Assembly (NCBI GenBank): GCA_965242965.1
Contig: OZ251518.1
Coordinates: forward strand, 5,280,001 to 5,344,000
Direction: 5' to 3'
DNA length: 64,000 bases
DNA from: Candidatus Poribacteria bacterium
GTDB lineage: Bacteria > Poribacteria > WGA-4E > WGA-3G
Made by a program: the position numbers and the translations under genes. Of this stretch, positions 10,960-42,958 are shown one piece after another. The stretch's first letter is position 1. Each line of letters opens with the position of its first letter. Under the pieces are notes generated by a model. The model saw only the letters and a list, made by a program, of their open reading frames with translations. It ran no database searches and had not been told where the DNA came from.

Positions 10960-11697
10960 GAGGGGGTTTCGTAAGTCGTTTTCCCCGGTAGGAGAGACCT
11001 CCTGGTCTCGATGCAAGCGATGTTCCTTGTAGGAGAGACCTCCTGGTCTCGATTGTGATCAGGCGATCACAAACTACAGAGTGGGGAAAGCGAAAAAAAC
11101 GTCTCTCCTTTCTCTTAGGTCCGTTGGACCTAAAGACATAACTTGACGATAGAGATCGCGGGGGACAGGCCCCCGCGCTACGGGAAAAAACGGCGTGCGG
11201 TACCGTAGGGCTTGGGCCCTCGGATGCCATACGCGCATCCGAGCGGGTTTCCCTCGCCATCGTTCGCACTACGAAAAAACGTCTCTTGCTCTCTTCAGGT
11301 CCTAAAGGACCTAAAACGCGACTCTTGACGATGGAGATCGCGGGGGACAGGCCCCCGCGCTACGGGAAAAAACGGCGTGCGGTACCGTAGGGCGAGGGCC
11401 TGTCCCTCGCCATCGCTCGCGCTACGGAAAAATCGAGACCAGGAGGTCTCTCCTACGGGAAGCTCTCGGGCCCACCTCTGTAGTTTGGGAGCGCCCGCTC
11501 CCGAACGGGTCAGGAGCAGGCGCTCCTGAACTACAGAGGTAATGCAGTCTGACAGCAAGGCGCATGGCGAGGGACAGGCCCTCGCCCTACGGTGCGGGGG
11601 AGGCATTTTTTTCATCGTAGCGCGGGGCCCCTCGGATGCCCCACGCGCATCCGAGTGGGTTTCCCCCGCGACGTTGAGCGATTTATGAAGCACCCTC
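10960..11697. mobile_element. MITE-like REP mosaic
   Basis: Ends gagggggtttcgtaa / ttatgaagcaccctc; interior of GTAG palindromes. Confidence 0.75.
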
Positions 11698-11720
11698 AAA
11701 TAACCTGTATAAAACCGGAC

Positions 11721-12683
11721 CTATCGATAAGGCTCCACATCAATTCCCGGATATGCCTGCGCGAGGCGTTTGAGAGTCTCCTCCGTGTAGTAGGCATCGC
11801 CGGGGGCAGGCCATCCTAGCACGCTGCGCACCGATGGCGTTGTCCGCGCGACAAACTTCATATAGTGCGGGCTCGTCCAACCGGGCACAGGACGCGTCGT
11901 TTTACACCAATCCGCATTGTCGGCGCGATGGAAATGATACCCTATCCACGCGCGCTGTTTGCGGCGGTTCTTAAACGGCTGAGCCGCATGGACTAAATAA
12001 CTGGAACGGAAGGCGACACTCCCCGCCTTCGCCGTTACAGGAGTCGGCTCTCCTAACTCCGGAAATTCCCGCAAATCTCGAAGGCTCATGCCACCGGCGT
12101 GCCCCGGATGTTTTGCCCACACCGCATCCAATTGGTTCTGCGAACCTGGGCAGACGAGCATCGGCGCGCCATCTAACTCAATGTCGTGCAGGATAATCCC
12201 AGACAGGATATAGCCGTATCGTTGCCAATCCGGATGCGGCGGCAACGGCGAATTGGTGGCGTTGTCGATATGATACCCCTGCCACGGATGCTCACTATAA
12301 CGCGTATCGGTGAGGCCCTCTCGCACAAAAATCTGGCCATAGCCGAGCCGAATTTCTTCGCTGCCGAGCAGCTGCTGCGCAATCGCTAAATACGCCTCAT
12401 TTTCCAGAAGCGCGTCTACTGCCGCTAACCCAGTCGGAAAATGCAGGGCTTTTCCAAACGGACCGGCGAGTCTTCGCATTGCATCTGTCTTCTCATAAGC
12501 ACGCTGGAGTTCTTCCGGCTGTTCGTCCCACTTGGCGCGATATTCGGCGTAGGTTAACCCATCGTAGGCGTTCCGTTCGATTTCCGCTAACGCCGGCGCG
12601 ACCTGCTCAATTTGAAAAACGTCCGGCACCACAAGCGTCCCATCCCGTTTCCACGCCGCAAGTTGTTCGTGTGTCAGTTTCAT
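11721..12683 (-). CDS. Phytanoyl-CoA dioxygenase (PhyH) family protein
   Basis: W..DG.LVV start, HID facial triad, PGSQ, distal H in YLVHAA; ATGA overlap with rfbB. Confidence 0.85.
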   Translation of the reverse strand: MKLTHEQLAAWKRDGTLVVPDVFQIEQVAPALAEIERNAYDGLTYAEYRAKWDEQPEELQRAYEKTDAMRRLAGPFGKALHFPTGLAAVDALLENEAYLAIAQQLLGSEEIRLGYGQIFVREGLTDTRYSEHPWQGYHIDNATNSPLPPHPDWQRYGYILSGIILHDIELDGAPMLVCPGSQNQLDAVWAKHPGHAGGMSLRDLREFPELGEPTPVTAKAGSVAFRSSYLVHAAQPFKNRRKQRAWIGYHFHRADNADWCKTTRPVPGWTSPHYMKFVARTTPSVRSVLGWPAPGDAYYTEETLKRLAQAYPGIDVEPYR

Positions 12684-13693
12684 GAGAACTTCTCCCATTT
12701 ATCCTCTTCTACCGAGGCATGAATGTTCTCCCACCACGTCTGGTTTTCAATATACCATTGGAGCGTCTCGCGCAATCCCTGCTCAAACGCTATTTTCGGT
12801 TCCCAACCTAGTTCCCTACGAATCTTCGATGAATCCAATAGATACCGACAATCGTGTCCGGGCCGGTCGGGGACGTACGTTTTCAAAGCCTGCGGTTTGC
12901 CGACAACCTCCAAAATAAAATCGCTAATCTCCTCAATGCTTTTCTCAACCCCGCTGCCGACGTTGTAAGTTTCGCCGACTTTGCCGTCGTGGATAACTAA
13001 GGCAATCGCGCGACAATGGTCTTCAACATGCAGCCATTCTCGTCGGTTATGACTGCTGCGATAGAGCGTGAGCGGTTTATCTTGGAGCGCGTTCGTCGTA
13101 AACAGCGGAATCAACTTCTCTGGATGCTGATAAGGACCGTAGTTATTGGAGCAGTTAGAAATCGTAATCGGCATGCCAAAACTATGGAAATAGGCGTTGA
13201 CGAGATGGTCTGCCGCTGCTTTTGATGCGTTATAGGGGGTCTGGGGCCGGTAAGCGGTCTCCTCCGTGAACGCATCGGGTGAGTCCAACGGCAGTTCACC
13301 GTAGACCTCGCACGTAGAGATATGATGAAACCGATGCACGCCATATTTTCGGGCGGCATCCAGCACTATCTGCGTGCCGATGACGTTCGTCTCAAAGAAC
13401 CGCCGCGGTTCTAAAATCGCCCGGCTGTTGTGTGACTCGGCGGCGAAATTGACGATGACATCGGGATGATGGGTTTTCAGCACTGCTTCAACGAGCACCG
13501 CGTCCAGCATATCGCCGTGCGCAAACTCGTAACGCCGCGGGTAACGTTCTACCACATCCTTAAGATTGGCGAGGTTACCGGCGTAAGTGAGCCGGTCGAG
13601 GTTCACGATGGCATCGTCCGGGTAGTGCTGAAGCCAGTATCGAATGAAGTTCGTGCCGATGAACCCGGCCCCGCCGGTGACGAGTAATTTCAT
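12680..13693 (-). CDS. rfbB: dTDP-glucose 4,6-dehydratase
   Basis: GGAGFIG, FAAESH, YNASK, NNYGPYQHPEKLIP, DRPGHD. Confidence 0.95.
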   Translation of the reverse strand: MKLLVTGGAGFIGTNFIRYWLQHYPDDAIVNLDRLTYAGNLANLKDVVERYPRRYEFAHGDMLDAVLVEAVLKTHHPDVIVNFAAESHNSRAILEPRRFFETNVIGTQIVLDAARKYGVHRFHHISTCEVYGELPLDSPDAFTEETAYRPQTPYNASKAAADHLVNAYFHSFGMPITISNCSNNYGPYQHPEKLIPLFTTNALQDKPLTLYRSSHNRREWLHVEDHCRAIALVIHDGKVGETYNVGSGVEKSIEEISDFILEVVGKPQALKTYVPDRPGHDCRYLLDSSKIRRELGWEPKIAFEQGLRETLQWYIENQTWWENIHASVEEDKWEKFS

Positions 13694-13779
13694 TTGAGGT
13701 CTCTTCCTTCGGCCGGATAGAGAAATCCGTCCTGATATGAGTTGCGCAAAAGTCGCTTTGTCTATCTCTCGTTCTCAGC

Positions 13780-14373: not shown

Positions 14374-14414
14374 CCTTTCACTCCTTCTTTGGTTTGTCAA
14401 AATTGGATACAAAC

Positions 14415-14444
14415 AATATATCATAAATGCGCGAGTGATGTCAA
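14415..14444 (-). promoter_or_regulatory. Sigma70-type promoter
   Basis: TTGACA-18 bp-TATATT with TG extension on the minus strand. Confidence 0.5.
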
Positions 14445-14454
14445 GAGTGTTTTT

Positions 14455-14862
14455 TGAGCAGGATTGAGCAGGATTGAGCAGGATTTTCAAGATTTTCAAG
14501 ATTTCACAAGATATGAGCAGGATTTTCAAGATTTCCAGGATTTACCAAGATTAGGTTTCTGGTGCGCCGTCGCGGTTTTGGCAGGCCACGGGGTATTTGA
14601 TGCACCAAGCCCTATAATCGTGGAAATCCTGCTCCTAATCGTGGAAATCCTGCTCCTAATCGTGTAAATCCTGCTCCTAATCGTGCGAAATCGTGATAAT
14701 CGTGCAAATCCTGCTCCTAATCGTGCAAATCCTGCTCCAAATCGTGCAAATCCTGCTCCAAATCGTGTAAATCCTGCTCCAAATCGTGTAAATCCTGCTC
14801 CTAATCATGAGAATCTTGTAAATCCTGCTCCAAATCGTGCTAATCCTGCAAATCCTGCTCAA
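14455..14862. repeat. AATCCTGCT repeat locus: inverted degenerate block plus 21-bp tandem array
   Basis: gagcaggatt/ttcaagatt units at 14455-14550; taatcgtgNaaatcctgctcc about 11 times from 14615. Confidence 0.9.
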
Positions 14863-14868
14863 ATTTCC

Positions 14869-14897
14869 TTGACAGACGAAACCCAAAATGATAAAAT
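14869..14897 (+). promoter_or_regulatory. Sigma70-type promoter of mod
   Basis: TTGACA-17 bp-TAAAAT with TG extension. Confidence 0.75.
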
Positions 14898-14945
14898 ATA
14901 CTGAAAACCCGAATTGAACCTAGCACCGAAGGATAACCACACCTA

Positions 14946-16610
14946 ATGCCAACGCTCAACTGGATCGGAAAAGAGGCGGTCGTCAATCATCACAACGAAG
15001 TGCCTGTCCATACACTCACGCACAACCCGGAACATTCTATCGGGACAAACGCGCCGCCATCGCCCGCGGCGGGGAATCTGCTCATTGAAGGCGATAACCT
15101 CCTCGCGCTCAAAGCACTCCTCACACACTACGCCGGCAAGGTTAAGTGCATCTTCATCGATCCGCCTTACAACACCGGCAACGAAAGCTGGGTTTACAAC
15201 GACAACGTCAATCATCCGACTATCCAGAAATGGCTCGGCAAAACCGTCGGCACGCTTACCGTCGATCTCTCCCGACACGACAAGTGGCTCTGCATGATGT
15301 ATCCGCGCCTCTGCCTACTCCATCAACTCCTCCGCGATGACGGCGCGATTTTCATCACCATTGACGACAACGAGGTGCATCACCTGCGCATGCTCATGGA
15401 CGACATCTTCGGCGAAGATAATTTCATCGCGAACATCGCATGGGAAAAACGTTACAGCCGTAATAACGATGCTAAACTCTTCTACTCTAAAAAGGACGCG
15501 GTTCTCGTCTTCCGAAAAAGCGATAAACTGAAACTTCTGCGGGAAAACCGGACTGATGAAGCGAACTCGCTATATAGCAATCCGGACAACGATCCTCGCG
15601 GCCCTTGGATGACTACGCCCTATGCGCGGAAAAGTAGCAAAAAACACGCGAATCTCGTTTATCCTATTACCAATCCTAATACCGGGGAAACCGTAATTCA
15701 CCCAGATTATGCGTGGAGATGCACAAAAGCACAGTATGAGATTGACGTGAAGGAAAACAGGCTCTATTGGGGGAAAAGTGGCCGGGCGAAATACCCGAGG
15801 CGAAAACGTTATCTTTCCGAAGCAAGCGGAATGGTCCCGATAGATATTTGGCTCCACAAAGAAACTGGCACCTCCGATGAAGGCACCAGAGAAGTCAAGC
15901 AGGTATTCAATACCGAAAACACTGTTTTTGACTATCCGAAGCCGACGCGCCTTATCCGACGCATCATCAACCTCGTCACAACCTCTGATGGCGATGACAT
16001 TATCCTTGATTCGTTCGCCGGGAGTGGCACGACTGGACATGCTGTCCTCGCGCAGAATCAGGAAGATGGCGGCAACCGGCGATTTATCCTCGTCGAATTG
16101 GATGCAACCATTGCCAGCGAGATTACGGCAGTGCGGCTTCAGCGCGTCATTAACGGCTGGAGGTATGAGAATAACGGCAAGCAACAGCACCGGTTCGGCA
16201 CGGGTGGCAGTTTCGCCTATTACCGCGTCGGCGAGACGTTATTGGAGAAGTCGGAGATTCCGTTTGACGAGATGGGGCAGTATCTCTTTTTCAAGGAGAC
16301 GGGAGTGCCGATGGAAGCGGATGCCGCGCTGGCTCTCACCGAATGTGAGTCGGATACTTATCCGAAAAAGAAGAAGGCGTATTGCGCGTGCAGTGCGGAT
16401 GAGCGGCTGCAGCGTGCTTTTCTCGGCAGTGCGAACGGCATCGGTGTCTATCTTCTCAACAGCGATGATATCTTGACAGAGGCGTTGCTCAGTCGTTTGC
16501 CTCCGCATTCGGGTAGCAGAGTTATCCATTGCGGTGGCAATCGGCTTACGGAGGCGGCGTTGCGGCGGTTGGGGGTTACGTTTAAGCAGATGCCGTATCA
16601 TTTGGTATAG
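14946..16610 (+). CDS. mod: Type III R-M DNA methyltransferase (Mod)
   Basis: MPTLNWIGK, GDNL, IDPPYN, PKP, DSFAGSGTT. Confidence 0.92.
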   Translation: MPTLNWIGKEAVVNHHNEVPVHTLTHNPEHSIGTNAPPSPAAGNLLIEGDNLLALKALLTHYAGKVKCIFIDPPYNTGNESWVYNDNVNHPTIQKWLGKTVGTLTVDLSRHDKWLCMMYPRLCLLHQLLRDDGAIFITIDDNEVHHLRMLMDDIFGEDNFIANIAWEKRYSRNNDAKLFYSKKDAVLVFRKSDKLKLLRENRTDEANSLYSNPDNDPRGPWMTTPYARKSSKKHANLVYPITNPNTGETVIHPDYAWRCTKAQYEIDVKENRLYWGKSGRAKYPRRKRYLSEASGMVPIDIWLHKETGTSDEGTREVKQVFNTENTVFDYPKPTRLIRRIINLVTTSDGDDIILDSFAGSGTTGHAVLAQNQEDGGNRRFILVELDATIASEITAVRLQRVINGWRYENNGKQQHRFGTGGSFAYYRVGETLLEKSEIPFDEMGQYLFFKETGVPMEADAALALTECESDTYPKKKKAYCACSADERLQRAFLGSANGIGVYLLNSDDILTEALLSRLPPHSGSRVIHCGGNRLTEAALRRLGVTFKQMPYHLV

Positions 16611-16652
16611 TGGCGGCGCGTTTTGACATGTTTATGGGGAATGTGTTAAACT

Positions 16653-17133
16653 GAGGGTGTTTCGTAACTCCGTTTCGGTATTTATCGCCCCTGGAGGCGG
16701 GCGAATACCGGTAGGCATCGGGCCCACCTCTGTAGTTCGGGATCGCCTGATCCCGAACGGGTCAAGATCTGGCGATCTTGACCTACAGGGGTGAGGCAGT
16801 CTGACACCAAAACGCATGGCGAGGGAAACCCGCTCGCCTGCGCGTGTGGCAGGCGAGGGCCTCGCCCTACGTGAAGGGGCGGCGTTTTTTCACCGTAGCG
16901 CGGGGGCCTGTCCCCCGCGTTGGCCATCGTCAAGCGGTGGCGTTTTAGATCCTCTCTGTAGTTTGTGATCGCCTGATCACAAACGGGTCAGGATCAGGCG
17001 ATCCTGCCCTACAGGGGTGAGGCGCGCCGCCCTATTGCATCGAGACCAGGAGGTCTCTCCTACGGGGACATCGCTTGCATCGAGACCGGGAGGTCTCTCC
17101 TACGGGGAATGTATTGATATATGAAACACCCTC
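16653..17133. mobile_element. MITE-like REP mosaic
   Basis: TIRs gagggtgtttcgt / atgaaacaccctc; flanks gttaaact / gtcaaact (7/8 match). Confidence 0.8.
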
Positions 17134-17167
17134 GTCAAACTGATAACGACCCTAAAAGGAGGCGCAA

Positions 17168-17890
17168 ATGACACAAACGCAGGTAACATTCACGTCCGAT
17201 GGGCTTCAGCCGTTCGTTGAACGCCTACTCTTTACTTCCCGGGAACGTCTCGTCGCCCTGCTTTCACAGGACGCGGAGAGGGCCGCGCTGGAAACGGAGT
17301 TCCGCGAGTTTTTTGAAGGGTATATCGGGCTCGGGTTTTTATTGGAGGATTACGAAGAATCGCTCCTCGCAGTCCTTGAGACAGAAGAAAGGTTTTCGCC
17401 GCTGCATCACCGTGTCAAGATGGTTGAGTCTCAGCGGAAATCGTCGCCGGATAGTCGCATTGCCCGGCGGATGGGAGTGGGTCCGCTTCTCACAGATCCG
17501 CAGCCGTCGATAAAAGTGATTGAACTGCCGGATGCCGAGTTCCGTGCGTTGCTGGAGATGCTGGTGAGTTGGCCGCTGTTCGCTGCGCGCGAACGCCTCG
17601 CCAAATTGCACAAGGATACCAAAACCGACGAAAATGGCACGCCACGCTTACGCGAGAGCAAACCAGACGCGCGTCTCAAACCCGCATTCTTGGAATTTTT
17701 CGTCTGCTACTTGGAACTTGAACAGTTCCTTGAAAATTATGAATATGACCAGGATGAAGGTTTGGAAGTGCGGCCTGAGGTTCTTGAAGAATGGGATCGC
17801 AGCATCGCGGAGGTCGAAGCGGGTGGGAAAACCTATTCGCTTGAGGAAATCGCGAAAGAGTTGGGGATTGAATTGGAATGTATACCCTAG
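17168..17890 (+). CDS. Putative long antitoxin with duplicated helical domain
   Basis: AGGAGG RBS; LF..RERL..L...F.EFF..Y..L...LE.Y twice; tail SIAEVEAGGKTYSLEEIAKELG; overlaps relE. Confidence 0.7.
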   Translation: MTQTQVTFTSDGLQPFVERLLFTSRERLVALLSQDAERAALETEFREFFEGYIGLGFLLEDYEESLLAVLETEERFSPLHHRVKMVESQRKSSPDSRIARRMGVGPLLTDPQPSIKVIELPDAEFRALLEMLVSWPLFAARERLAKLHKDTKTDENGTPRLRESKPDARLKPAFLEFFVCYLELEQFLENYEYDQDEGLEVRPEVLEEWDRSIAEVEAGGKTYSLEEIAKELGIELECIP

Positions 17891-18135
17891 AACTCAAACC
17901 ACGGGCCCGTAAGGATTTACAACGTTTGGATTCCTCGGTCCGCGCCCAAGTTGTCCGCAGGCTGCAGTGGTTGTGCCGCCATTGCGACGAAACCAAGCGC
18001 AAGGCACTGAAAGGCAAACATCGCGGTAAATTTAGGCTAAAAGTTGCCGAAGTTTATCGAGTCCTCTATAATTTTGATACAGGCACCAGAGTTCTGACTG
18101 TCCATCGAATTGGGCACCGCCGGAACGTCTATTAA
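17878..18135 (+). CDS. relE: RelE/ParE-family toxin
   Basis: 85 aa basic protein: ARKDLQRL, LKG, FRLKV..YRVLY, IGHRRNVY. Confidence 0.88.
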   Translation: MYTLELKPRARKDLQRLDSSVRAQVVRRLQWLCRHCDETKRKALKGKHRGKFRLKVAEVYRVLYNFDTGTRVLTVHRIGHRRNVY

Positions 18136-18137
18136 CC

Positions 18138-19002
18138 GAGGGTGTTTCATAATTCCGTTTGGGTATTTATCCCGCCTTGGAGGAAGGGCGAATACCGGCA
18201 GGCATCGGGCCCACCTCTGTAGTTCGGGATCGCCTGTGGGTGGGCGGTAAAACGGGTCAAGATCGCTTGGCAGGTATGCCAGAGCTTCAGACGATCTTGA
18301 CCTACAGAGGTGATGCACTCTGACCTCAAAACGCTGGCGAGTGAAACCCGCTCGCCTGCGCGTGTGGCAGGCGAGGGCCCCTCGCCCTACGTGAAGGGGC
18401 GGCGTTTTTTTTCCCGTAGCGCGGGGGCCTGTCCCCCGCGTTGCCTATCGTTAAGCGGTGGCGTTTTAGGTCCTCTCTGTAGTTTGTGATCGCCTGATCA
18501 CAAACAGGTCAGGATCAGGCGATCCTGACCTACAGAGGTGAGGCGCGCCGCCCTATTGCATCGAGACCAGGAGGTCTCTCCTACGGGACGCTCGCGGGGG
18601 ACAGGCCCCCGCGCTACGGTAACCGGACGGTTTTTTGGCAGCGGAACGGCTCCCCCCATCGTAGGGCGAGGGCCTGTCCCTCGCCGTGCTGCGGTCTATC
18701 GAACGCTCGCGGGGGACAGGCCCCCGCGCTACGGTAACCGAACGGTTTCTTGGCAGCAGAACGGCTCCCCCCTCCATCGTAGGGCGAGGGCCTGTCCCTC
18801 GCCATGCTGCGGTCCACCGAAAACTCGCGGGGGACAGGCCCCCGCGCTACGGTAACCGGACGGTTTTTTGGCAGCAGCACGGCTCTCCCCATCGTAGGGC
18901 GAGGACCTGTCTCTCGCCGTGCTGCGGTCTATCGAACGCTCGCGGGGGACAGGCCCCCGCGCTACGGTAACCGGACGGTTTCTTGAGTTACGAAACAGCC
19001 TC
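18138..19002. mobile_element. MITE-like REP mosaic with ~117-bp internal tandem
   Basis: TIRs gagggtgtttcataa / ttacgaaacagcctc; first ~450 bp collinear with 16653-17105; about three tandem REP-pair units at 18588-18982. Confidence 0.8.
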
Positions 19003-19035
19003 GCTTACGTATATCACAAGGAAAACTACCAAACC

Positions 19036-21438
19036 ATGCACCACATCCCCAAAGAATACCAACTCCGCACCCTTGAAACCTTGTCGGCTTACTATCAGAA
19101 ATGCCTGACATACGAAAAGGCAGATCTGGCTTTCTACGACATAACGGAGCGGCCCTATGCCCCCGTGGCTTCGTTACCCGGCATGCCTTATGTCTGCTTG
19201 CGGCTGCCGACTGGCGGCGGGAAAACCTTCGTCGCGTGTCATGCCGTGCGCATCACCGCGGCGGAACTCCTCAAAACCGAGAGCCCGATAGTCCTCTGGC
19301 TGGTGCCCTCAAATGCCATCCGCGATCAGACGCTGAACGCGCTCAAGGACCGGGCGCATCCGTATCGGCAAGCGTTGGAAGAGACGCGCCGCAACGCCGA
19401 AATCCGCACTGTCCAAGAGGCACTCCATCTGTCGCCTTCCGTGCTCAATACCAAAACGACGGTGATAGTCTCCACGATGCAGGCATTCCGCGTGGAGGAT
19501 ACCGAAGGACGCAAGGTTTATGAAAACTCCGGCGCGCTGATGGGGCATTTCACGCACCTGCCGGAAGAAACCCTCTCGCAGATTGAACGCGAAGAAGATG
19601 GCACCCCGGTTTATTCCCTTGCGAATCTTTTGCGCGTGAAACGTCCGCTTGTCATTGTCGACGAGGCGCACAACGCGCGCACGGAACTCTCATTTGAAAC
19701 GCTGGCGCGCTTTCGTCCCGCCGCTATCATTGAATTCACGGCGACACCCGATACGGAGAAAAATCCCTCCAATGTGCTCTACACCGTCTCCGCCGCCGAA
19801 CTTCACGCCGAAGACATGATTAAGATGCCGATTCAGTTGGAGACAATGCCGGCGTGGAAGCAGCTCCTCGCCGCCGCTATCGCGCAGCGGGATGCCTTGG
19901 AGACAGACGCGCAACGGGAACAGCACGAAACTGGCGAATACATCCGTCCTATTATGCTCATTCAGGCGCAGCAGCGGCGCAAAAATCAGGAAACCTTGAC
20001 GGTAGAAGTTGTTGAGAAGTGCCTTCGCGAGGACTACGGTATTCCCGAAGAGCAAATCGCCCGCGCCACGGGAGAGGACAGAGGTTTGGAAGATGTCGTG
20101 TTGGATGCCCCGGAATGCGCTATCCGCTATGTGATTACCGTGCAGGCGTTGCGCGAGGGATGGGACTGTCCCTTTGCCTACGTCCTCTGCTCTGTCGCCG
20201 AGATGCGTTCCTCCAGAGCCGTAGAGCAGCTATTAGGAAGAGTCATGCGCCTGCCGCGTGCACGCCGCAAGCAACAGGCATCGCTCAACAAGGCTTATGC
20301 CTTCGTCGCTTCGCGCAATTTTTACGAGACTGCATCAGCCTTAGCCGATGGGCTCGTCCAAAACGGATTTGAGAGACAGGCGGCAGCCGAGCTCATCCGC
20401 GACACAACCGAGCAACCCGTTCTCCCGCTCTTTGCCTACGAGACGAGGGAGAACATTGAATCCGCGCCTGTTGAACGCGGCGAAGTCTTTCAAGTGCCGA
20501 AACTCGTTATTCAACGCGACGCGATGTTCCTTGATTTTGAGGAATCGCGATTCTTGGAGACACCGTGGTCGCTTTCTGAATGCGATGCCGAACTCACTGA
20601 AGAAGAGTTCCCTTCGGAATTCAACACCGGCGTGCGCGGCGAAATCGGTGTCTCAGGTGCCGGGAAGATCGAGATGCACTTCCTCGGTGAACTGCATCAG
20701 CAGATGTTTCACCTCGCACCCGATAAAGGTTGGGATGCCGCCAAACTCGCCGAATGGTTGGACAGAACCATTATCCATCAGGATATTCTGCAACGCGAAT
20801 CACTCCCGTTCCTGCAAAACCTTGTCAAGCATCTGATTGAGACGCGCGGCATTCCGATAGAGGTGCTTCTTCACAACAAATATGTCCTAAAAGATACCGC
20901 CGCGGCGAAGATTGATAGTCACCGGCAGCGCGCCCACCGCGGTGCTTACGAAAACTTCCTTTTGCCCGAATGCGAAACGCCGGTAGTCGTCTCCCCCGAA
21001 AACTGCTTCACTTACGAACGTTATCCCTATAACACCCGATACACCGGCGCGTATCAGTTCCAAAAACACTATTACCGCGACATTGGGGAACTGAAATCGG
21101 AGGGTGAAGAATTCCGCTGCGCGCAGTTTATTGACACTCTCCCGGAAGTCAAGTTTTGGGTGCGCAATCTGGAACGTCAACCGCTGTATGCGTTTTGGCT
21201 CCAGACCATGGATGATAAGTTTTATCCCGATTTTGTCTGCCTGTTAACAGATGGCCGTTATCTCGTCGTTGAGTATAAAGGCGAGCATCTCTGGAGCGCG
21301 GACGATGCCGTTGAGAAACGTGAAATCGGCGAACTCTGGGAGGCGCGGAGTCATGGACAGTGCCTCTTCGTCATGCCGAAGGGGACTGATTTTGAGGCAA
21401 TCCGCGCGAAGTTTATTGACAATCCAAGACAAAAGTGA
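19036..21438 (+). CDS. res: Type III R-M restriction subunit (DEAD/DEAH helicase plus nuclease)
   Basis: PTGGGKT, VDEAH, EGWDCP, QLLGRVMR, YPDF...VEYKG. Confidence 0.92.
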   Translation: MHHIPKEYQLRTLETLSAYYQKCLTYEKADLAFYDITERPYAPVASLPGMPYVCLRLPTGGGKTFVACHAVRITAAELLKTESPIVLWLVPSNAIRDQTLNALKDRAHPYRQALEETRRNAEIRTVQEALHLSPSVLNTKTTVIVSTMQAFRVEDTEGRKVYENSGALMGHFTHLPEETLSQIEREEDGTPVYSLANLLRVKRPLVIVDEAHNARTELSFETLARFRPAAIIEFTATPDTEKNPSNVLYTVSAAELHAEDMIKMPIQLETMPAWKQLLAAAIAQRDALETDAQREQHETGEYIRPIMLIQAQQRRKNQETLTVEVVEKCLREDYGIPEEQIARATGEDRGLEDVVLDAPECAIRYVITVQALREGWDCPFAYVLCSVAEMRSSRAVEQLLGRVMRLPRARRKQQASLNKAYAFVASRNFYETASALADGLVQNGFERQAAAELIRDTTEQPVLPLFAYETRENIESAPVERGEVFQVPKLVIQRDAMFLDFEESRFLETPWSLSECDAELTEEEFPSEFNTGVRGEIGVSGAGKIEMHFLGELHQQMFHLAPDKGWDAAKLAEWLDRTIIHQDILQRESLPFLQNLVKHLIETRGIPIEVLLHNKYVLKDTAAAKIDSHRQRAHRGAYENFLLPECETPVVVSPENCFTYERYPYNTRYTGAYQFQKHYYRDIGELKSEGEEFRCAQFIDTLPEVKFWVRNLERQPLYAFWLQTMDDKFYPDFVCLLTDGRYLVVEYKGEHLWSADDAVEKREIGELWEARSHGQCLFVMPKGTDFEAIRAKFIDNPRQK

Positions 21439-23208: not shown

Positions 23209-23870
23209 GAGGGTGTTTCACAAATCGCTCAACGTCGCGGTGACAGGCCCCCGCGCTATTGCTGGTAGGAGAGACCTCCTAGTCTCGATGAGGTAAGGCG
23301 TGCATTCTCTGGACCCGTTCGGGTGCAGGCGCACCCTAACTACAGGGCCAGCGTGCGCTCCCCGACTGTAGTTCAGGATCGCCTGATCCTGAACTGTTTG
23401 TGATCAGGCGATTACAAACTACAGAGGGGAAAACATACATCGTGACGATGGAGATCGCGGGGGAAACCCTCTCGGATGCGCGTATGGCATCCGAGGGCCC
23501 CCGCGCTACGGTAAAAAACGTCTTTTAGGTCCGTAGGACCTTAATGTCTATAGCACGTGAGGTTGCGAAGAACGCTAAGGTCCTTTAGGTCCTTAATGTG
23601 TTTTGCCAGGGCCGCGCGGGTTTTATTAAGGACCTAAAGGACCTTGGAAACGGGCTGACACGTGTTGCTATAGACATGTAGGACCTAAAGGACCTAAGAT
23701 GGCATCTTGCCGATGGCCAACGCGTGGGAAACCCGCTCGGATGCGCGTATGGAAACCTCCGAGGGCCCCCGCGCTACGGGAACATCGAGACCGGGAGGTC
23801 TCTCCTACGGAGAAGCCATCGAGACCGGGAGGTCTCTCCTACCGGGGAAAACGAGTTATGAAACACCCGC
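23209..23870. mobile_element. MITE-like REP mosaic
   Basis: TIRs gagggtgtttcac / atgaaacacccgc; flanks acgttagtt / acgttaatt (8/9 match). Confidence 0.85.
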
Positions 23871-26150: not shown

Positions 26151-26703
26151 GAGGGTGTTTCATATCTCGATGCCTTCCCCGTAGGAGAGACCTCCTGGTC
26201 TTGATTTCTTCGGGTAGGAGAGACCTCCCGGTCTCGATGCAATAGGGCGGCGCGCCTCCCGGGGCCGCAGCGGCAGAAAGCCCCCTTCATCGTAGGGCGG
26301 TGGGAAAACCTGTCCCTCGCCATCGTCCTCTTCAGGTCCGTAGGACCTGAATGTCTATAGCAGCCCAAACGCTAAAGGCTCTAAGGTCCTTTAGGTCCTT
26401 AATAGATTTTGCCAGGGCCGCGTGGTTTTTATTAAGGACCTAAAGGACCTTGAAAACGGCACGACACGTGTTGCTATAGACATTAAGGACCTAAAGGACC
26501 TTGAAAACGGGCCGATACGTTTTTCTATAGACATTAAGGACCTAAAGGACCTAAAACGCCACCGCTTGACGATGGCACTCGCGGGGGACAGGCCCCCGCG
26601 CTACGGGAAAAATAGTAGGTCAGGATCGCCTGATCCTGACCCGTTCGGGATCAGGCGATCCCGAACTACAGAGGTTGGCCCGATGCCTTTATGAAACATC
26701 CTC
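26151..26703. mobile_element. MITE-like REP mosaic
   Basis: TIRs gagggtgtttcat / atgaaacatcctc; tandem ctatagacattaaggacctaaaggacc units. Confidence 0.8.
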
Positions 26704-26705
26704 AC

Positions 26706-28474: not shown

Positions 28475-28523
28475 TAATTCCCTCCTACGCTTCGGTTTTG
28501 GTGTGAATCACGCAATCTATTCT

Positions 28524-28791
28524 GAGAGTGTTGCATAAATCGCTCAACGTCACGGGGGACAGGCCCCCGCGCTACGATGAAAAAAACGCATCCTCTTCAC
28601 GTAGGGCGAGGGCCTGTCCCTCGCCATCGTTCATGCACCAGACCCTCTCCCCTCTGTAGTTCAGGATCGCCTGATCCTGACCCGTTCGGGAGCGGGTGCT
28701 CCCGAACTACAGAGGTGCGCCCGATGCCTGCCGGTATTCGCCCGCCCACCAAGGCGGGATAAATACCGAAACGGAATTATGAAACACCCTC
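28524..28791. mobile_element. Short MITE-like REP mosaic with perfect 9-bp target duplication
   Basis: ATCTATTCT at 28515-28523 and 28792-28800 around gagagtgttgcataa / ttatgaaacaccctc. Confidence 0.88.
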
Positions 28792-28916
28792 ATCTATTCT
28801 ACTATATGGCCCAAACCAGGTCAAGTGAAAATGTGTGCAAACAAGGCGATTCAGTTTTCCATATTCCAAACGCCTATTGGCAGCAAGAGGCTTCCGTATC
28901 CTTAAACGGAAAACGA

Positions 28917-28977
28917 TAATCCTGCTAATCCTGCTAATCCTGCTAACCCTGCTCATATCCTGTTCATATCCTGTTCT
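28917..28977. repeat. AATCCTGCT 9-mer tandem
   Basis: aatcctgctaatcctgctaatcctgctaaccctgctcatatcctgttcatatcctgttc. Confidence 0.8.
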
Positions 28978-29048: not shown

Positions 29049-29769
29049 GAGGGTATTTCATATTTCGATGCGTTTGTTAGGAGAGACCTCGGGGCTCGAT
29101 GTTCCCGTAGCGCGGGGGCCTGTCCCCCGCGATCGCTCAAGAACCGCTTTTTCATCGTAGCGCGGGGCCCTCGGATGCCATACGCGCATCCGAGCGGGTT
29201 TCCCCCGCGTTGTCCATCGTCCCGATGTGTTTTTCCTCATCTGTAGTTTGTGATCGCCTGATCACAAACGGGTCAGGATCAGGCGATCCTGACCTACAGA
29301 GGTGATACCTACAGAGGTGATGGGTATCGTCCCGATGTGTGTTTAGGTCTTTTAGGACCTACATGTCTATAGCAGCACGTGTCGTTCTGTTTTCAAGGTC
29401 CATTAGGACCTTAATAAAACACGCGCGGCCCTGGCAAAACCTATTAAGGACCTAAAGGACCTTAGCGTTCTTCGCGTCGCCGAGGGCTATAGACATTAAG
29501 GACCTAAAGGACCTTAAAGACGGTTTTTCCGGCGCGCCGACGCTGGGCGAGGGACAGGCCCTCGCCCTACGATGAAGGGGGGGCGTTTTTTTTACCGTAG
29601 CGCGGGGGCCTGTCCCCCGCGATCGTTGGATCGCGCGGACGATGGCGAGGGACAGGCCCTCGCCCTACGATGAAGGGGGGGCTTTCTGACTCCCTATTGC
29701 ATCGAGACCAGGAGGTCTCTCCTACAGGGACATCGCTTGCATCGAGACCGGGAGGTCTCTCCTACCCTC
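29049..29769. mobile_element. REP mosaic, left arm (left TIR only)
   Basis: Starts gagggtatttcat; only ccctc remains at the right end. Confidence 0.7.
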
Positions 29770-29832
29770 AAGCGGCTGCGAAAGGCGAAAACTGAAGGCA
29801 CGCTAGTCATTGAACAATAGGAGACACTAAAA

Positions 29833-30729
29833 ATGAAAAGCCTACACACCCCCTTCTTGGGCACACTCTCGCTTTTTCTGATCTGTCTGCTCAGCGGGTT
29901 CTGGGGATGCGGCGACACTGAAGAGGCGATGGAAACGGAAGCGGGGGCACCCTTCAACCTGCTGTCACCGCGCACCGAGCGTATGGAAACGGAAGCGGTG
30001 GCACCCTTCAACCTGCTGTCACCGCTCATCGAGCAGGACGAGATAGCCTCCGACGGAAGAGAGCTCTCGATGCCGCCAGCGGAAGAAATTGCCGCTGCGG
30101 AATTACGCGCGAAACACTTCAGGGAAGAACTCAGCACCGGAAAAAGGCAGATTCCGCTAGAATGGTGGACAACCGAAGACCTGGTATTACGCGTTGAATA
30201 CTACCGCGCACAACTCATCAAACAGTTTGGCGATATTCCGCAGGTTCACACCGTCGCAGACCACGAACTCAAAGTGGCGATGGGGATTCCTTGGGTGCCA
30301 CGTGAGGTATTCATCGCTTTTTTGGAAGCGCAATATCATCTCTGGCCGCATCCCACAACGCTGCAAGCACTTGAGAACGCTCGCAATCCACCAAAGCCAC
30401 CGGATATGAAGAAACTCCGCACGGAAGACCCGGGGTTATGGGATAAGTTAAACCGCGAACATCTCATCAATCGACATGGCGATATCCCAGACGTTCACCT
30501 CGTTGCGGATTTTCAAATGACGATCACGCTGGAACAAGCGTTCACAGATGATGAATACCTCGCCTATTTGGAAGCACTCTCTCGTCTCCATCCGGCGGAT
30601 GACATCCCGCGGCTGATGGTGGAAAGATACCGAAAGGCGAAAGCAGACGGCATTCCCTTCGGTGATGTTGACGTAGACGATATTCTCGCAAAAATCGACG
30701 GTGAAGAACCTGAGGCGGAGGACGAGTAA
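29833..30729 (+). CDS. Hypothetical lipoprotein with internal repeats
   Basis: Signal ending FWGC; METEA.APFNLLSP twice; LI...GDIP.VH.VAD...LEA...L.P twice. Confidence 0.8.
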   Translation: MKSLHTPFLGTLSLFLICLLSGFWGCGDTEEAMETEAGAPFNLLSPRTERMETEAVAPFNLLSPLIEQDEIASDGRELSMPPAEEIAAAELRAKHFREELSTGKRQIPLEWWTTEDLVLRVEYYRAQLIKQFGDIPQVHTVADHELKVAMGIPWVPREVFIAFLEAQYHLWPHPTTLQALENARNPPKPPDMKKLRTEDPGLWDKLNREHLINRHGDIPDVHLVADFQMTITLEQAFTDDEYLAYLEALSRLHPADDIPRLMVERYRKAKADGIPFGDVDVDDILAKIDGEEPEAEDE

Positions 30730-30759: not shown

Positions 30760-31561
30760 CTGGCGCACGAACGATGGCGAGGGACAGGCCCTCGCCCTAC
30801 GTGAAGGGAAGCGTTTTTTTATCGTAGCGCGGGGGCCTGTCCCCCGCGCGCGTTGGAGTGCGCGAACGATGGCGGGTGAAACCCTCTCGGATGCGCGTAT
30901 GGCATCCGAGGGCCCTCGCCCTACGTGGAGGGGCGGCGTTTTTTTATCGTAGCGCGGGGGCCTGTCCCCCGCGATCTCCATCGTCACGATGTGTTTTCCT
31001 CATCTGTAGTTTGTGATCGCCTGATCACAAACGGGTCAGGATCAGGCGATCCTGACCTACAGAGGTGATGGGCATCGTCCCAATGTGTGTTTAGGTCCGT
31101 TAGGACCTACATGTCTATAGCAGCACGTGTCGTTACGTTGTCAAGGTCCGTTAGGTCCTTAATAAAACCACGCGCGGCCCTGGCAAAACCTATTAAGGAC
31201 CTAAAGGACCTTAGGGTTCTTTTCAGGCGCGCGTGCTATAGACATTAAGGTCCTACGGACCTAAGAACCGTTTTTTATCGTAGCGCGGGGGCCTGTCCCC
31301 CGCGTTGTCTATCGTCCCGATGTGTTCTTCCTTATCTGTAGTTTGTGATCGCCTGATCACAAACAGGTCAGGATCAGGCGATCCTGACCTACAGGGCCTG
31401 GTGCACGAACGATGGCGAGGGACAGGCCCTCGCCCTACGATAAAGGGGGCTTTCTGCCGTCCTATTGCATCGAGACCAGGAGGTCTCTCCTACCGGGGAA
31501 AACGGAATCGTTCGGGGTGTCACGAAACCATTTTGACAACAACGGGTCATGAAACACCCTC
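30760..31561. mobile_element. REP mosaic, right arm (right TIR only)
   Basis: Ends atgaaacaccctc; ~300 bp collinear with 29210-29515. Confidence 0.7.
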
Positions 31562-35190: not shown

Positions 35191-35231
35191 GGGCGGCTAT
35201 TGTTCAAAGCCACCCCCCGTAAACGTCAAAT

Positions 35232-35735: not shown

Positions 35736-35748
35736 GGGAGGACTTACC

Positions 35749-35973: not shown

Positions 35974-35975
35974 CA

Positions 35976-36252
35976 GTTCGTAGGGTGGGGGCCTGTCCCC
36001 CGCCATGCCATGACGACTCAATGGTTCGTAGGGTGGGGGCCTGTCCCCCGCCATGCCATGACGACTCAATGGTTCGTAGGGTGGGGGCCTGTCCCCCGCC
36101 ATGCCACGACTGCTCAGCAAATCAGGTCTGCGAGGGACAGGCCCTCGCACTACGATAATGCCGGTACGATTCGTAGGGCGGGGGCCTGTCCCCCGCCATG
36201 CCATGACGACTCAGCGAATCAGGTTTGCGAGGGACAGGCCCTCGCACTACGA
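35976..36252. repeat. GTAG-REP tandem (48-bp period) between convergent genes
   Basis: gttcgtagggtgggggcctgtcccccgccatgcc at 35976, 36024 and 36072, followed by inverted REP pairs. Confidence 0.88.
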
Positions 36253-36276
36253 ACGAGAGAAGGCTCGCCTTTCCCC

Positions 36277-39581: not shown

Positions 39582-39690
39582 TTTCGTATGTCGCGATGCG
39601 TTGTTCAGCTGCTTTTGTGCAGAGAAGGTTGTCTCCTCAGGCCGTCTTGACGATGTCAAGACTTGCATTTCTGGGCTAAGAAATTTAATC

Positions 39691-40258
39691 GAGGGTGTTT
39701 CATATTTCAATGCACACCCATAGAAGAGCCCTCTGGTCTCGATGCAATATCCCTGTAGGAGAGCCCTCCCGGTCTCGATTTTTCCGTAGCGCGGGGGCCT
39801 GTCCCGCGCGTTGTCCATCGGCAAGATGCTGTCTTAAGTCCGTAGGACCTAAGAGCACGCGCGCCGTTTTTTTCGTTCTCTCCTCTCTGTAGTTTGTGAT
39901 CGCCTGATCACAAACGGGTCAAGATCAGGCGATCTTGACCTACAGGGGTGATGCGGTCTGACAGCAAAACGCTGGCGAGGGACACCCGCTCACCTGCGCG
40001 CGTGGTATGCGAGGGCCCAAGCCCTGCAGTGACGCACCGTTTTTTTTCCGTAGCGCGGGGGCCTGTCCCCCGTGAGCGTTGGATTGCGCCGACGCTGGCG
40101 AGGGGAACCCGCTCGGATGCGCGTGTGGCATGCGAGGGCCCAAGCCCTACGATGAAGGGGGGCTTTCTGCCGCCGCGGCCCCGGTAGGCGCGCCGGCCTA
40201 TTGCATCGAGACCGGGAGGTCTCTCCTACCGGGAAACCATCAATTATGAAACACCCTC
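39691..40258. mobile_element. MITE-like REP mosaic with perfect 8-bp target duplication
   Basis: ATTTAATC at 39683-39690 and 40259-40266; perfect TIR gagggtgtttcat / atgaaacaccctc. Confidence 0.9.
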
Positions 40259-40260
40259 AT

Positions 40261-41244
40261 TTAATCAGGCAAGCGGATGCGCTGGCCCGTGTTCGCGGAT
40301 TCGTGCAAGGCATCGATAACGCGCATATTGCAGAGCGCGTCTGAAATCGGTAGACGCTGCGGCGCGCCGGTTTCTATCACTTCACACAGATTCAGCATCT
40401 CGGCGGCATACGGGTTGATACCTTTGACGCTGAAAGTCTCGCCGTTCACCGTGAAATGCGATGTGTCCTCGCCGTTACCCCACGCCGTTTGGACAGAAAG
40501 CGTTCCATCTGTCCCTGCGACTTCGTAAGATTCGCGCCATGTCCACCCGAAACTGCAATCCAATTGTCCTGTGATACCGTCGCCGAAATCTAGCGTGCCG
40601 ATGAGCGTTTCCCAGACGTGGTTAATCGCCTCAAACTTGCCGGTAGCCCACGCGAATTTCGGTTCTTTCCCGACGAGATACCGGATGATATTGATACAGT
40701 AACATCCCAGATCCATGACGGCACCACCGCCGAGTTCGCCCCGAAGCCGCCAGTTTCGCCTATCCGTCAATCCGGTTGAAAACGTGGCGCGCGCGTATCG
40801 CACTTCCCCGATTGCGCCTTCCTCTATCTTCTCCTTCACCGCCAACGTCAGCGGATGATGCCGATACATAAAGGCTTCCATGATACGGATATTGGCGCGT
40901 TCCGTTACCTGAATCATCTGCTCCAGTTGCGTGGTGGTAACAGCGATAGGTTTTTCAACGAGGATGCCTTTGACACCACACCGCACCGCCTCCATCACAT
41001 TTTTGAGGTGACTGGCAGGCCAGGTTGCCACGAGGAGGACATCGGGTTGTTGTTTCTCCAGCATTTGTCGGAGCTCGTTATAGGTATTTTGGACGTTATA
41101 TTCGTTGGCAAAGCGGGCAAGCGGTTCAAATTTCTCATCGCACGCGCCAACGATTTCAATCTCCGGCACCTCGCGCCATGCGAGGCCGTGTGCATGTGAG
41201 ATGCCGCCACACCCGACAATTGCCACGCGGTATTTTGCGGACAT
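40261..41244 (-). CDS. Gfo/Idh/MocA oxidoreductase
   Basis: GCGGI, VEKP, EAFMYRHHP, GGGAVMDLGCY. Confidence 0.92.
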   Translation of the reverse strand: MSAKYRVAIVGCGGISHAHGLAWREVPEIEIVGACDEKFEPLARFANEYNVQNTYNELRQMLEKQQPDVLLVATWPASHLKNVMEAVRCGVKGILVEKPIAVTTTQLEQMIQVTERANIRIMEAFMYRHHPLTLAVKEKIEEGAIGEVRYARATFSTGLTDRRNWRLRGELGGGAVMDLGCYCINIIRYLVGKEPKFAWATGKFEAINHVWETLIGTLDFGDGITGQLDCSFGWTWRESYEVAGTDGTLSVQTAWGNGEDTSHFTVNGETFSVKGINPYAAEMLNLCEVIETGAPQRLPISDALCNMRVIDALHESANTGQRIRLPD

Positions 41245-41266
41245 AATTTACCTCAGAAGGAACTGA

Positions 41267-42241
41267 CTAGCCGATTTCGGATACCGACACCGGCCGGTTT
41301 TCTTGTGCAGAACGGTTCGCCGCCAATGAAATCGCAAGGGTTTTGACAGCATCGCTATATGGACTCAGGATGCGCGCGTCGTTGCCGCTGCGCACCGCTT
41401 CTACAAAGACTTCATCAATAGTCGGGCTCGGCTCGGTTTTCTCGCTCCATTTTCCATCTTCGCGCACCGAAACTCGCGACGGATTCCAATTGAGCATTTG
41501 TGCGCCGTAGAAGACATCAAGAATGTTCGCGTTGGACCAGTCGCCGTCGTATGCCCATGTCGCTGTCAAAGCACCGATGGCACCACTCGCGAACTGCATC
41601 GAGACACTGTTGACATCGGGGCAATCCGTGGCTTTCAAAAACCGATTCGCCTGCATCGCGTAAACGGTGTCTACTTCGCCGCCCATGTAACGCATCATGT
41701 CAATAGTGTGCGTTGCTTGTTCGACCAGTTGGCCTCCCGATTTGTTCATTTGCCGCAGCCAAGCGTCCGGGTTTCCGTGCCCCGTGTTGCACCAATATTT
41801 GCCCACTAGCATGTTTAGCGAGGCGTTCCGTAAAATCTCGCGTGCTATCAGCGTGGAACCGAGATAACGGAGTTGATAGCCAACGCAGGTAATCAACCCT
41901 GCCTTCGCCACTTGTCCCTCAATTTCGCGGGCGATGTCCATGTTGATAGCCACGGGCTTCTCAACGAAAAAGGGTAACCCGCGCGCGATTACGTCAAGTT
42001 CCGGCTGCCCGTGCGCGAAAACCGGGAGGCTGAGATAGACTGCGTCTAAGTCCTCGCTTTCTAGCATCGCGTGATGCTCGGTATAGGGTTGCGCGTTGTG
42101 CTTTTCAGCTGCGCTTTGCGCGCGTTCGGGTTGAACGTCACACACGGCGACGATGCGCGCCCCTTCTAATTGGGTGAGTTGATTCATGTGGCCGTTGGCA
42201 TTGCCGCCACATCCGATAAATGCAATTTTAACGTCGCTCAT
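41267..42241 (-). CDS. Gfo/Idh/MocA oxidoreductase
   Basis: IGCGG, VEKP, VGYQLRY, SGGQLVEQATH. Confidence 0.92.
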   Translation of the reverse strand: MSDVKIAFIGCGGNANGHMNQLTQLEGARIVAVCDVQPERAQSAAEKHNAQPYTEHHAMLESEDLDAVYLSLPVFAHGQPELDVIARGLPFFVEKPVAINMDIAREIEGQVAKAGLITCVGYQLRYLGSTLIAREILRNASLNMLVGKYWCNTGHGNPDAWLRQMNKSGGQLVEQATHTIDMMRYMGGEVDTVYAMQANRFLKATDCPDVNSVSMQFASGAIGALTATWAYDGDWSNANILDVFYGAQMLNWNPSRVSVREDGKWSEKTEPSPTIDEVFVEAVRSGNDARILSPYSDAVKTLAISLAANRSAQENRPVSVSEIG

Positions 42242-42263
42242 CAATGTCCATCCTACTTTTGTT

Positions 42264-42958
42264 GAGGGTGTTTTATAACTCCGTTGTTGTAAAAATGGTT
42301 TCGTGAGACCTCGAACGCTTCCGTTTCCCCGGTAGGAGAGACCTCCTGGTCTCGATTTCTCCCCGTAGGAGAGACCTCCCGGTCTCGATTTCTTCCTCCC
42401 GGTCTTGATACGGTGCAGGCAGCAACCCGCCGCTTTCACCGTAGGGCGTGGGCCCTCGGATGCCACACGCGCATCCAAGCGGGTTCCCCTCGCCATGCAA
42501 CTGATGAGAAATTTCTGCTGGTTTTAGGTCCGTAGGACCTTAATGTCTATAGCTCTTCGTCCTGCGAAGACTCTTAAGGTCTGTAAGACCTTAATGTGCA
42601 TCTGCACCGCGTCGCTAGCCTGCTATTAAGGACCTAACGGACCTTGAAAACGATGAAAGGCACGTTTTTCTATAGACATGCAGGACCTAAAGGACCTGAA
42701 GAGCCGTTTTTTTCAAAAGAGATTTCGTCGCTGCGAATGGACACCGCCGTTTTACCGTAGCGCGGGGGCCTGTCCCTCGCGATCGTTTTAGGCCCCGTAT
42801 CGCGGGGCCCTCGGATGCCATACGTGCATCCGAGCGGGTTCCCCCGCGATCGTTGCCTGGCGAGGGACAGGCCCTCGCCCTACGGTAAGCAAGGCCATTC
42901 TGGATACCGTAGCGCAGGGCCTGTCACCGCGACGTTAAGCAATTTATGAAACACCCTC
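42264..42958. mobile_element. MITE-like REP mosaic
   Basis: TIRs gagggtgttttat / atgaaacaccctc; flanks acttttgtt / atttttatt (7/9 match). Confidence 0.8.

Follow-up and report, generated by a model that had tools for sequence, protein, structure and literature searches.

DDE-type miniature elements with centres built of GTAG palindromes in a Poribacteria genome

[quoted passage not shown] In a 64,000-nucleotide stretch of contig OZ251518.1 from Candidatus Poribacteria bacterium, a bacterium of sponge-associated type (positions 5,280,001 to 5,344,000 of a contig of 5,661,971 bp; hereafter the window) we found the signatures of both in the same units. Eight complete elements and one split pair, labelled E1 to E9 with E7a and E7b as the halves of the pair (Table 1), carry terminal inverted repeats (TIRs) and target-site duplications (TSDs) and behave as DDE-type MITEs. 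Their centres are mosaics of palindromes, most families of which bear a GTAG tag. We consider it probable that the elements are MITEs of a DDE insertion sequence (IS) of about 1.1 kb that is widespread in Poribacteria, with the REP mosaic as a passenger. With a candidate DDE partner identified in the phylum, it becomes testable whether a cut-and-paste transposase spreads REP clusters, and how such clusters grow.

Terminal repeats and target-site duplications

We searched the window with the 13-mer GAGGGTGTTTCAT, allowing up to 2 mismatches. This gave 19 matches where 1.13 were expected, the maximum of 100 shuffles being 5. Eighteen of the matches form nine inward-facing pairs, eight of which span 268-865 bp; the ninth, 29049(+)/31561(-), spans 2513 bp around an open reading frame (ORF) of 298 aa. 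All 18 ends lie exactly where a preliminary description of this DNA had placed them when it proposed eight complete elements and a split pair sharing a 13-bp TIR. The 19th match, at 34585, is unpaired, has 2 mismatches and lies at an ORF start, and was treated as a chance occurrence rather than as a genuine end. A 15-mer search with up to 3 mismatches returned 21 matches, the extra ones (8569, 34583 and 39554) each having 3 mismatches and no partner. By both searches, the 18 genuine ends in the window are all paired and none stands alone.

The two ends of a pair agree at 10-13 of the 13 positions. Conservation exceeds 13 nt, and alignment of the 18 ends gave the consensus GAGGGTGTTTCATAAnTCnnT, in which 14 or more ends agree at each of positions 1-15 and 15-16 ends at positions 17, 18 and 21. 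The TIR module is always found at the outer boundary, facing inward. Toward the flank the TIR reads ATGAAACACCCTC (at 11685-11697, at further right ends, and also at L039 4110 and L014 3002, two loci from other Poribacteria that are described below) and thus offers an outward-facing ATG. At L039 and L014, predicted ORFs in the flank begin with MKHP....

Comparison of the sequences flanking each pair gave the duplications listed in Table 1, whose length is either 8 or 9 bp depending on the copy. On this re-measurement we obtained the same values as had been claimed previously (9/9, 8/8, 8/9, 7/8 and 7/9, with weak or no duplication elsewhere). Flank matches over 8-9 bp reached at least 0.85 in four of the nine pairs and at least 0.77 in five. 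As a control that preserves the AT-rich composition, each left flank was set against the right flanks of all elements but its own; none of these 72 combinations reached either 0.77 or 0.85. Among 20,000 random placements, 0.1% reached 0.85 and 0.23% reached 0.77. Together, the TIRs and the significant duplications of 8-9 bp support DDE-type MITE behaviour. Copies had also been reported to sit at stop codons, and 3 of the 18 ends (10960, 26703 and 40258) do lie 2-3 nt from one. This proximity, together with the stop codon contained in the TSD of E8, is consistent with AT-rich targets being preferred in a host genome of 54% G+C.

The palindrome mosaic and a partner insertion sequence

Eight module types were scored across the window, giving 115 matches in 64 kb, and the spans that hold them contain no Pfam-supported gene. 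The module mosaic of the preliminary description proved to be real, with 96 of the 115 matches falling inside ten TIR-associated spans that cover 6354 bp, or 9.9% of the window. Complete elements hold 4-13 palindromes each and half elements up to 14, drawn from at least five families whose order varies. R1, R2 and R3 begin with the GTAG tag, R4 is bracketed by CTGTAG...CTACAG, and R5 is untagged. The modules are predicted to fold into strong DNA hairpins (z -2.9 to -7.1), with -5.6 to -21.4 kcal/mol and z of -3.2 to -7.1 for the GTAG palindromes, and the R2(-)/R1(+) doublet at 29546-29624 into a single long hairpin (-23.8 kcal/mol, z = -3.3). An Rfam scan of the whole window gave no match at the gathering score. 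Bacterial interspersed mosaic elements (BIMEs) combine two or more palindrome types in alternating orientation with conserved linkers and tandem amplification of doublets, and a BIME-like pattern is seen in E3, where R1(-) and R2(+) alternate and are tandemly amplified.

Only R3 was found to follow an orientation rule. In the eight complete elements its GTAG points toward the nearer end in all eight left-half and all seven right-half copies (Fisher p = 1.6e-4), and 13 of these 15 copies lie within about 100 bp of an element end; no such rule was found for R1, R2 or R4 in the same elements. The elements thus consist of arms, each made of a TIR and one or two R3 units, around a variable centre. 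R3 arms are absent from some ends. Where at least four subterminal types had been described, we distinguished at least six by eye. These combine freely, the six giving nine different pairings by eye, with A+C2 seen twice.

The further claim that the mosaic moves with the ends is borne out by E6. Over its full 268 bp, and with a perfect TSD at either side, this element is collinear with the left 265 bp of E2 and of E3, TIR included. It follows that several palindromes have been copied as one block, together with the end, to three loci. Both elements with perfect duplications, E6 and E8, are already complete mosaics. The blocks that elements have in common measure 130-450 bp, with pairwise identities of 70-87%. 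Internal reshuffling, which had also been proposed, is evident in three forms: tandem amplification, gain or loss of nested hairpins and what looks like a join at a palindrome held in common. Local doubling is seen for R3 and R5 units. In E2 and E3 the R2 loop contains a nested hairpin of 30 nt that is absent from E6. Finally, E6 runs from R1 straight into a type-A end; the type-A end starts with R1 as well, and this is exactly what deletion or recombination at a shared palindrome would give.

We then searched a collection of genome contigs with the 14-mer GAGGGTGTTTCATA, which matched at least 107 loci, mostly as single matches in unrelated taxa. Among the matches listed are nine loci from six Poribacteria assemblies; the window genome is not among them, and blastn of the window against the loci gave 0 matches. 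In four of the nine Poribacteria loci the TIR lies where a contig ends, as is usual for a repeat that has been collapsed. Locus L039 (L039/L040) holds, at 3001-4122, an IS of 1122 bp with two perfect facing ends, both GAGGGTGTTTCATAAAT, and flanks that match at 7/8 positions. Its ORF of 285 aa matches PF13612 (DDE_Tnp_1_3; 1.3e-8, 35.4 bits, cutoff 27) and scores 49.6 bits with the NCBIfam IS982 model, below the cutoff of 130. An N-terminal part of the transposase lies upstream in another frame. A copy with its N-terminus intact and a 3' deletion was found at L019 and a degraded copy at L014, which places the IS with GAGGGTGTTTCATAAAT-type 17-nt ends in three other Poribacteria assemblies. The partner with a matching TIR that the preliminary description had called for, an IS with a DDE transposase and the same 17-nt ends, was thus found in other Poribacteria genomes.

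At E<=1e-5 the transposase has 772 homologues. Of the 120 listed, most have a length of 332 aa, many lie on contigs of 1.1-1.3 kb, and the named ones are labelled Candidatus Poribacteria. Three full-length transposases scored 45.4-56.5 bits with NF033520 (IS982; cutoff 130), 30.2-38.9 bits with PF13612 (cutoff 27) and 27.6, 30.6 and 18.1 bits with PF01609 (cutoff 23); scores with the IS5 and IS4 models were 18 bits or less. DNGY and R..E..K motifs can be recognised by eye in transposase P0007. Given that PF13612 is passed and the family cutoffs are missed, we regard the enzyme, 332 aa when intact, as an unclassified member of the IS4/IS5 (DDE_Tnp_1) clan, with IS982 as the nearest model. Members of this clan can have GAG-type ends and TSDs as long as 9 bp.

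A fourth Poribacteria genome provides a minimal form of the element. At L010 2865-3014, on a chromosome whose G+C is 41.5% at this locus, lies a 150-bp MITE with the same TIR ends and a perfect 8-bp TSD, AGTTATTT. Its centre is an inverted doublet of a GTAG palindrome (GTAGGAGGGACCTCC...) that is homologous to R3 of the window. No window module other than R3 was found in the Poribacteria loci. The layout of E8 is that of the L010 MITE with a filled centre.

A different IS with similar ends was seen in Bacteroidales. An 896-bp IS5-family element of Muribaculaceae (L016 3001-3896; NCBIfam NF033580, 2e-51), also present at L011, L012, L027, L028, L043, L059, L061, L092 and L096, has ends whose opening 15-16 nt are the same, GAGGGTGTTTCATAAC, with TAA or TTA as its flanks. 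By BLASTP its transposase is dissimilar to that of Poribacteria (E=1.8). The likeness of the ends reflects either convergence or a very ancient end sequence shared within the IS4/IS5 clan.

Explanations for the mosaic and comparison with known systems

These data allow us to propose how the elements arose. We infer that a transposase supplied in trans recognises ends of 15-18 nt (GAGGGTGTTTCATAAnTC, GAGGGTGTTTCATAA). A staggered cut at AT-rich sites, which are often gene ends or stop codons, would leave a duplication of 8 or 9 bp. The ancestral element was probably TIR, R3, inverted R3, TIR, the form that the 150-bp L010 MITE would have retained. Palindromes may first have colonised this simple MITE, and in the lineage of the window the space between the R3 arms would have been filled by BIME-like clusters of R1, R2, R4, R5 and the nested N. 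As transposition needs only the ends, the centre would be a passenger, copied along. It could then diversify in at least three ways: by local tandem duplication, by acquiring or losing hairpins inside the loops of other hairpins, and by recombination or deletion where a palindrome recurs, within one copy or between copies, recombination being the presumed source of the joins.

Several observations weigh against this proposal. No convincing TSD is present in four of the nine pairs: E1 (6/9), E3, E5 and the split pair. Ten of the 18 TIRs have 1-2 mismatches, a sign that copies are old or come from many sublineages, and the block identities of 70-87% likewise point to a family that is old or split into many sublineages. 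None of the 50 window ORFs that we profiled matches a DDE transposase in Pfam. Nor was a member of the transposase family seen on the window contig among the 120 homologues listed of 772 and the 133 listed members of ten clusters, and the transposase scores under the NCBIfam cutoff of every IS family model. Lastly, 19 of the 115 module matches are TIR-less and lie at five sites, to which a cluster at the window edge is added (Table 1); no degenerate TIR was found at these clusters with up to 3 mismatches allowed. The TIR-less palindromes reflect either another route of spreading, now or formerly, or decayed MITEs. The palindromes at 53954 and 54242 have nothing but their core in common with MITE copies, which suggests some dispersal without TIRs. 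The MITE is therefore not the only vehicle of the palindromes. The hybrid system of the preliminary description, in which a DDE enzyme moves REP mosaics that reshuffle internally, accordingly holds for the DDE-type ends, the moving mosaic and the reshuffling, and has to be tempered as regards palindromes outside TIR pairs and the precedents already published.

An alternative that we think unlikely, without dismissing it, is that the elements are ordinary MITEs in which independently mobile REPs or REP doublets forming hairpins (REPINs), driven by a RAYT encoded elsewhere in the genome, inserted by preference beside or within resident palindromes after the MITE had landed, the mosaic not being cargo. 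The five sites outside TIR pairs, with the core-only sharing at 53954 and 54242, would fit this account, as would the nested loop hairpin, whose presence or absence involves no duplication. R2(-)/R1(+) doublets fold in a REPIN-like manner, the L010 minimal MITE has an R3 doublet only, and GTAG tags are a hallmark of RAYT-linked REPs in the available text of PMC3733652. However, the elements with perfect TSDs are already complete mosaics, and an arrangement of four palindromes together with the TIR is collinear at three loci, which filling in situ would not yield. No Y1 or RAYT transposase was matched by Pfam among the 50 window ORFs. A TnpB gene in the window (IS605 OrfB, Cas12f1-like TNB; 3079-4191) has flanks in which no GTAG palindrome is seen by eye. 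The two accounts are compatible to the extent that insertion of REPs into a resident MITE may describe the origin of the first cargo.

It is considerably less probable that the transposase uses any two nearby inverted ends, so that an intergenic REP cluster lying between them becomes an element. The free combination of end types, in nine pairings by eye, would be expected from such capture, the pair 29049/31561 encloses a gene between half elements, and TIR-less clusters are available to be captured. Mosaic non-autonomous transposons that arise through Tn3-derived inverted-repeat miniature elements (TIMEs) offer a precedent in the available account (PMC4133298). Against this, the R3 arms are strictly oriented to the nearest end, which argues for inherited arms over random capture; the split pair lacks a TSD, and no solo TIR occurs in the window.

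We can scarcely credit that there has been no transposition at all, the 13-mer being a BIME-like module growing in place and the flank matches AT-rich chance: only some 15-18 nt are shared at the ends, next to variable subterminal sequence, and four of nine pairs are without a convincing TSD, but the 0 of 72 control matches came from flanks of the same composition, the same 17 nt end a transposase-bearing IS in three other genomes, a 150-bp MITE has a perfect TSD in a fourth (at a locus of 41.5% G+C), and the TIR module is always outermost and inward-pointing.

Returning to the reading in which a DDE transposase moves the mosaic as a passenger, a bolder form of it, which we put forward as doubtful, is that the GTAG REPs of Poribacteria need no RAYT and spread mainly or only in DDE MITEs, the TIR-less clusters being decayed MITEs or recombinants. 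We found no literature linking Poribacteria with tyrosine transposases. If no RAYT were needed, REP-like palindromes would have a second dispersal route, independent of HUH transposases, and the interior of the MITE would serve as a hairpin library that evolves and is carried to the ends of genes.

Among known systems, the nearest in kind is QMITE2 of Coxiella burnetii, a MITE of 150-190 bp with TIRs of 17-31 nt that contains a GTAG REP (PMC5896051; PMC10969869). Its direct repeats are variable, at 7-11 nt and mostly 9 in the published table, it lies for the most part in 3' UTRs or between genes, in some cases overlapping the 3' ends of genes, and its short TIR-less versions resemble plain REPs (PMC5896051). 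QMITE2 thus resembles the Poribacteria elements in its TIRs, flanking direct repeats, GTAG REP and location at gene ends. The available accounts mention a single GTAG REP, whereas the Poribacteria elements, at up to 865 bp, hold 4-13 palindromes of at least five families; they name no partner transposase. The two are unrelated in sequence. In Anabaena variabilis, a long inverted repeat of conserved sequence regularly surrounds dimers of GTAG-15, and this outer palindrome has not been found apart from the REPs (Di Nocera et al. 2013, PMC3733652). Unlike in Poribacteria, no TSD, transposase partner or multi-family mosaic is reported in the available text for these dimers (PMC3733652). Given QMITE2 and GTAG-15, the pairing of TIRs and TSDs with a GTAG REP is not new in kind.

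Other systems share one side of the architecture. The BIMEs of Escherichia coli and the REPINs of Pseudomonas likewise have GC-rich GTAG palindromes in extragenic locations, as far as the available sources describe them (PMC2817692, PMC3116915, PMC3337134). BIMEs and REPINs have no IS-type TIRs and no target duplication and are linked to RAYTs, whereas the Poribacteria elements have both TIRs and TSDs. A minisatellite MITE of Porphyromonas gingivalis also has a variable centre made of repeats between TIRs and TSDs that are fixed; in the available account that centre is one tandem minisatellite (PMC4596501), in contrast to the several REP families, also found outside the MITE, that make up the Poribacteria centre. 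The Poribacteria IS itself is like members of the IS982 family and the IS4/IS5 clan in having about 1.1 kb, a single ORF and a DDE_Tnp_1-type domain (PF13612, PF01609), and differs in that its transposase, at 45-56 bits with the IS982 model, fits no curated family model. A MITE family with a multi-family BIME-like mosaic centre, oriented REP arms and an identified DDE partner was not found in the literature searched, and neither was a published account of these Poribacteria repeats, supplements aside.

The elements matter beyond their mode of movement. Strong hairpin stacks delivered beside stop codons could act on transcript ends. For annotation, the repeats account for breaks in Poribacteria assemblies, the TIR lying at a contig end in four of nine loci, and for spurious ORFs called across the mosaics.

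Coordinates, neighbouring genes and other repeats

Table 1. Elements, TIR-less palindromes and associated features of the window
Feature	Coordinates	Length or strand	Structure	Flanks
E1, MITE	10960..11697	738 bp	TIR, R3 R3, mixed palindromes, type-A end, TIR	6/9
E2, MITE	16653..17133	481 bp	Left end type-B; right arm R3 R3	TSD GT(T/C)AAACT, 7/8
E3, MITE	18138..19002	865 bp	Left 450 bp collinear with E2 (85.6%)	No TSD on flank comparison
E3, right part	18588-18985		R1/R2 doublet tandem array, 115-bp unit, 3.4 copies, 90% matches	
E4, MITE	23209..23870	662 bp	Left end type-A; right arm R3 R3	TSD ACGTTA(G/A)TT, 8/9
E5, MITE	26151..26703	553 bp	Left arm R3 R3; right end and the stop codon of ORF 26706-27563(-) 2 nt apart	No TSD on flank comparison
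E6, shortest MITE	28524..28791	268 bp	Four scored palindrome modules and a type-B palindrome	Perfect 9-bp TSD ATCTATTCT, 9/9, at 28515-28523 and 28792-28800
E7a, half element	29049..29770		Left TIR, mosaic, R3- R3-, then CCCTC; intact right TIR absent	No TSD on flank comparison (pair 29049/31561)
ORF between E7a and E7b	29833..30729	+	298 aa; no Pfam match	
E7b, half element	30760..31561		Mosaic to R3-, type-D end, right TIR; left TIR absent	As for E7a
E8, MITE	39691..40258	568 bp	Both TIRs perfect; TIR, R3+, [R1 R4 R1 N], R3-, TIR	Perfect 8-bp TSD ATTTAATC, 8/8, at 39683-39690 and 40259-40266; right copy includes the stop codon of ORF 40261-41244(-)
E9, MITE	42264..42958	695 bp	Left, type-D end and R3 R3; right, type-A end	TSD 7/9
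U1, TIR-less REP mosaic	8939..9537		Collinear (73-84% identity) with inner parts of E4, E6, E7a, E7b and E9	
U2, TIR-less R1/R2-variant cluster	35976..36252		48-bp unit, 2.8 copies, 98% matches; 97-bp unit, 1.9 copies	
Lone direct R3 doublet, TIR-less	48704..48778	+		
Lone R2 palindromes	53954-53984, 54242-54272		Located at direct-duplication ends; core alone in common with MITE copies	
Edge-cut REP cluster	1..92		Right boundary without TIR	

The pair 29049/31561 was considered as a gene-carrying composite and set aside, having no TSD and lacking the inner end in each half, and is provisionally kept as two half elements. The 298-aa ORF between the halves has by eye a signal-peptide- or lipoprotein-like start and contains an internal 54-bp tandem repeat of 2 copies. 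It is conserved in relatives, with a 19-member cluster at 90% identity on related contigs. Four ORFs of 101-134 aa that lie mainly or wholly in elements, and a 179-aa ORF overlapping E7b, have no Pfam match. A homologue search with a spurious ORF across E1, used as a proxy for copy number, gave 88 partial matches, two on the window contig and five on two near-relative chromosomes, which is weak evidence that the mosaics are widespread and variable. The lone R2 palindromes each end a copy of a direct duplication of about 290 bp at 53653-54272, which adjoins a region of 12-nt tandem repeats (GCCGAGGGCATC) upstream of ccmB.

Proteins named Candidatus Poribacteria bacterium share 92-95% identity with the IlvD protein encoded in the window, and in two near relatives with chromosomes of about 5.74 and 5.81 Mb the identity of IlvD is 99%. 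The TnpB gene mentioned above has no adjoining TnpA and, given its flanks, was rejected as the source of the palindromes. An H+-pyrophosphatase gene (4306-6662) is present as two overlapping ORFs, 4306-5277 and 5148-6662, that cover Pfam profile positions 1-213 and 212-645; the split is a frameshift or a sequencing error.

Type III restriction-modification genes were noted at two places. The first (14946-21438) comprises a mod gene at 14946-16610 (PADLOC MTase_III, 2e-170) and a res gene at 18919-21438 (REase_III, 1.7e-140), with E2, E3 and an ORF of 240 aa (17168-17890) in between; the longest res reading frame is overlapped by the right end of E3. The second holds a second type III methyltransferase, split into ORFs 54996-56726 and 56740-57672, which cover profile positions 61-613 and 650-982 of 983. 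Downstream of it, within 54996-63306, are three tandem pairs that match the candidate defence system HEC-03, at 1e-105 to 5e-113 for HEC-03B and 7e-24 to 2e-27 for HEC-03A.

A second class of repeats consists of tandem units of 9-21 nt, found at 164-214, 14454-14552, 14615-14864 and 28917-28976. The unit types are AATCCTGCT and AATCGTGCA, with a maximum of 9.2 copies of a 21-mer at 90% matches. By eye, a core of about 40 nt at 113-148 is an inverted copy of 14562-14597.

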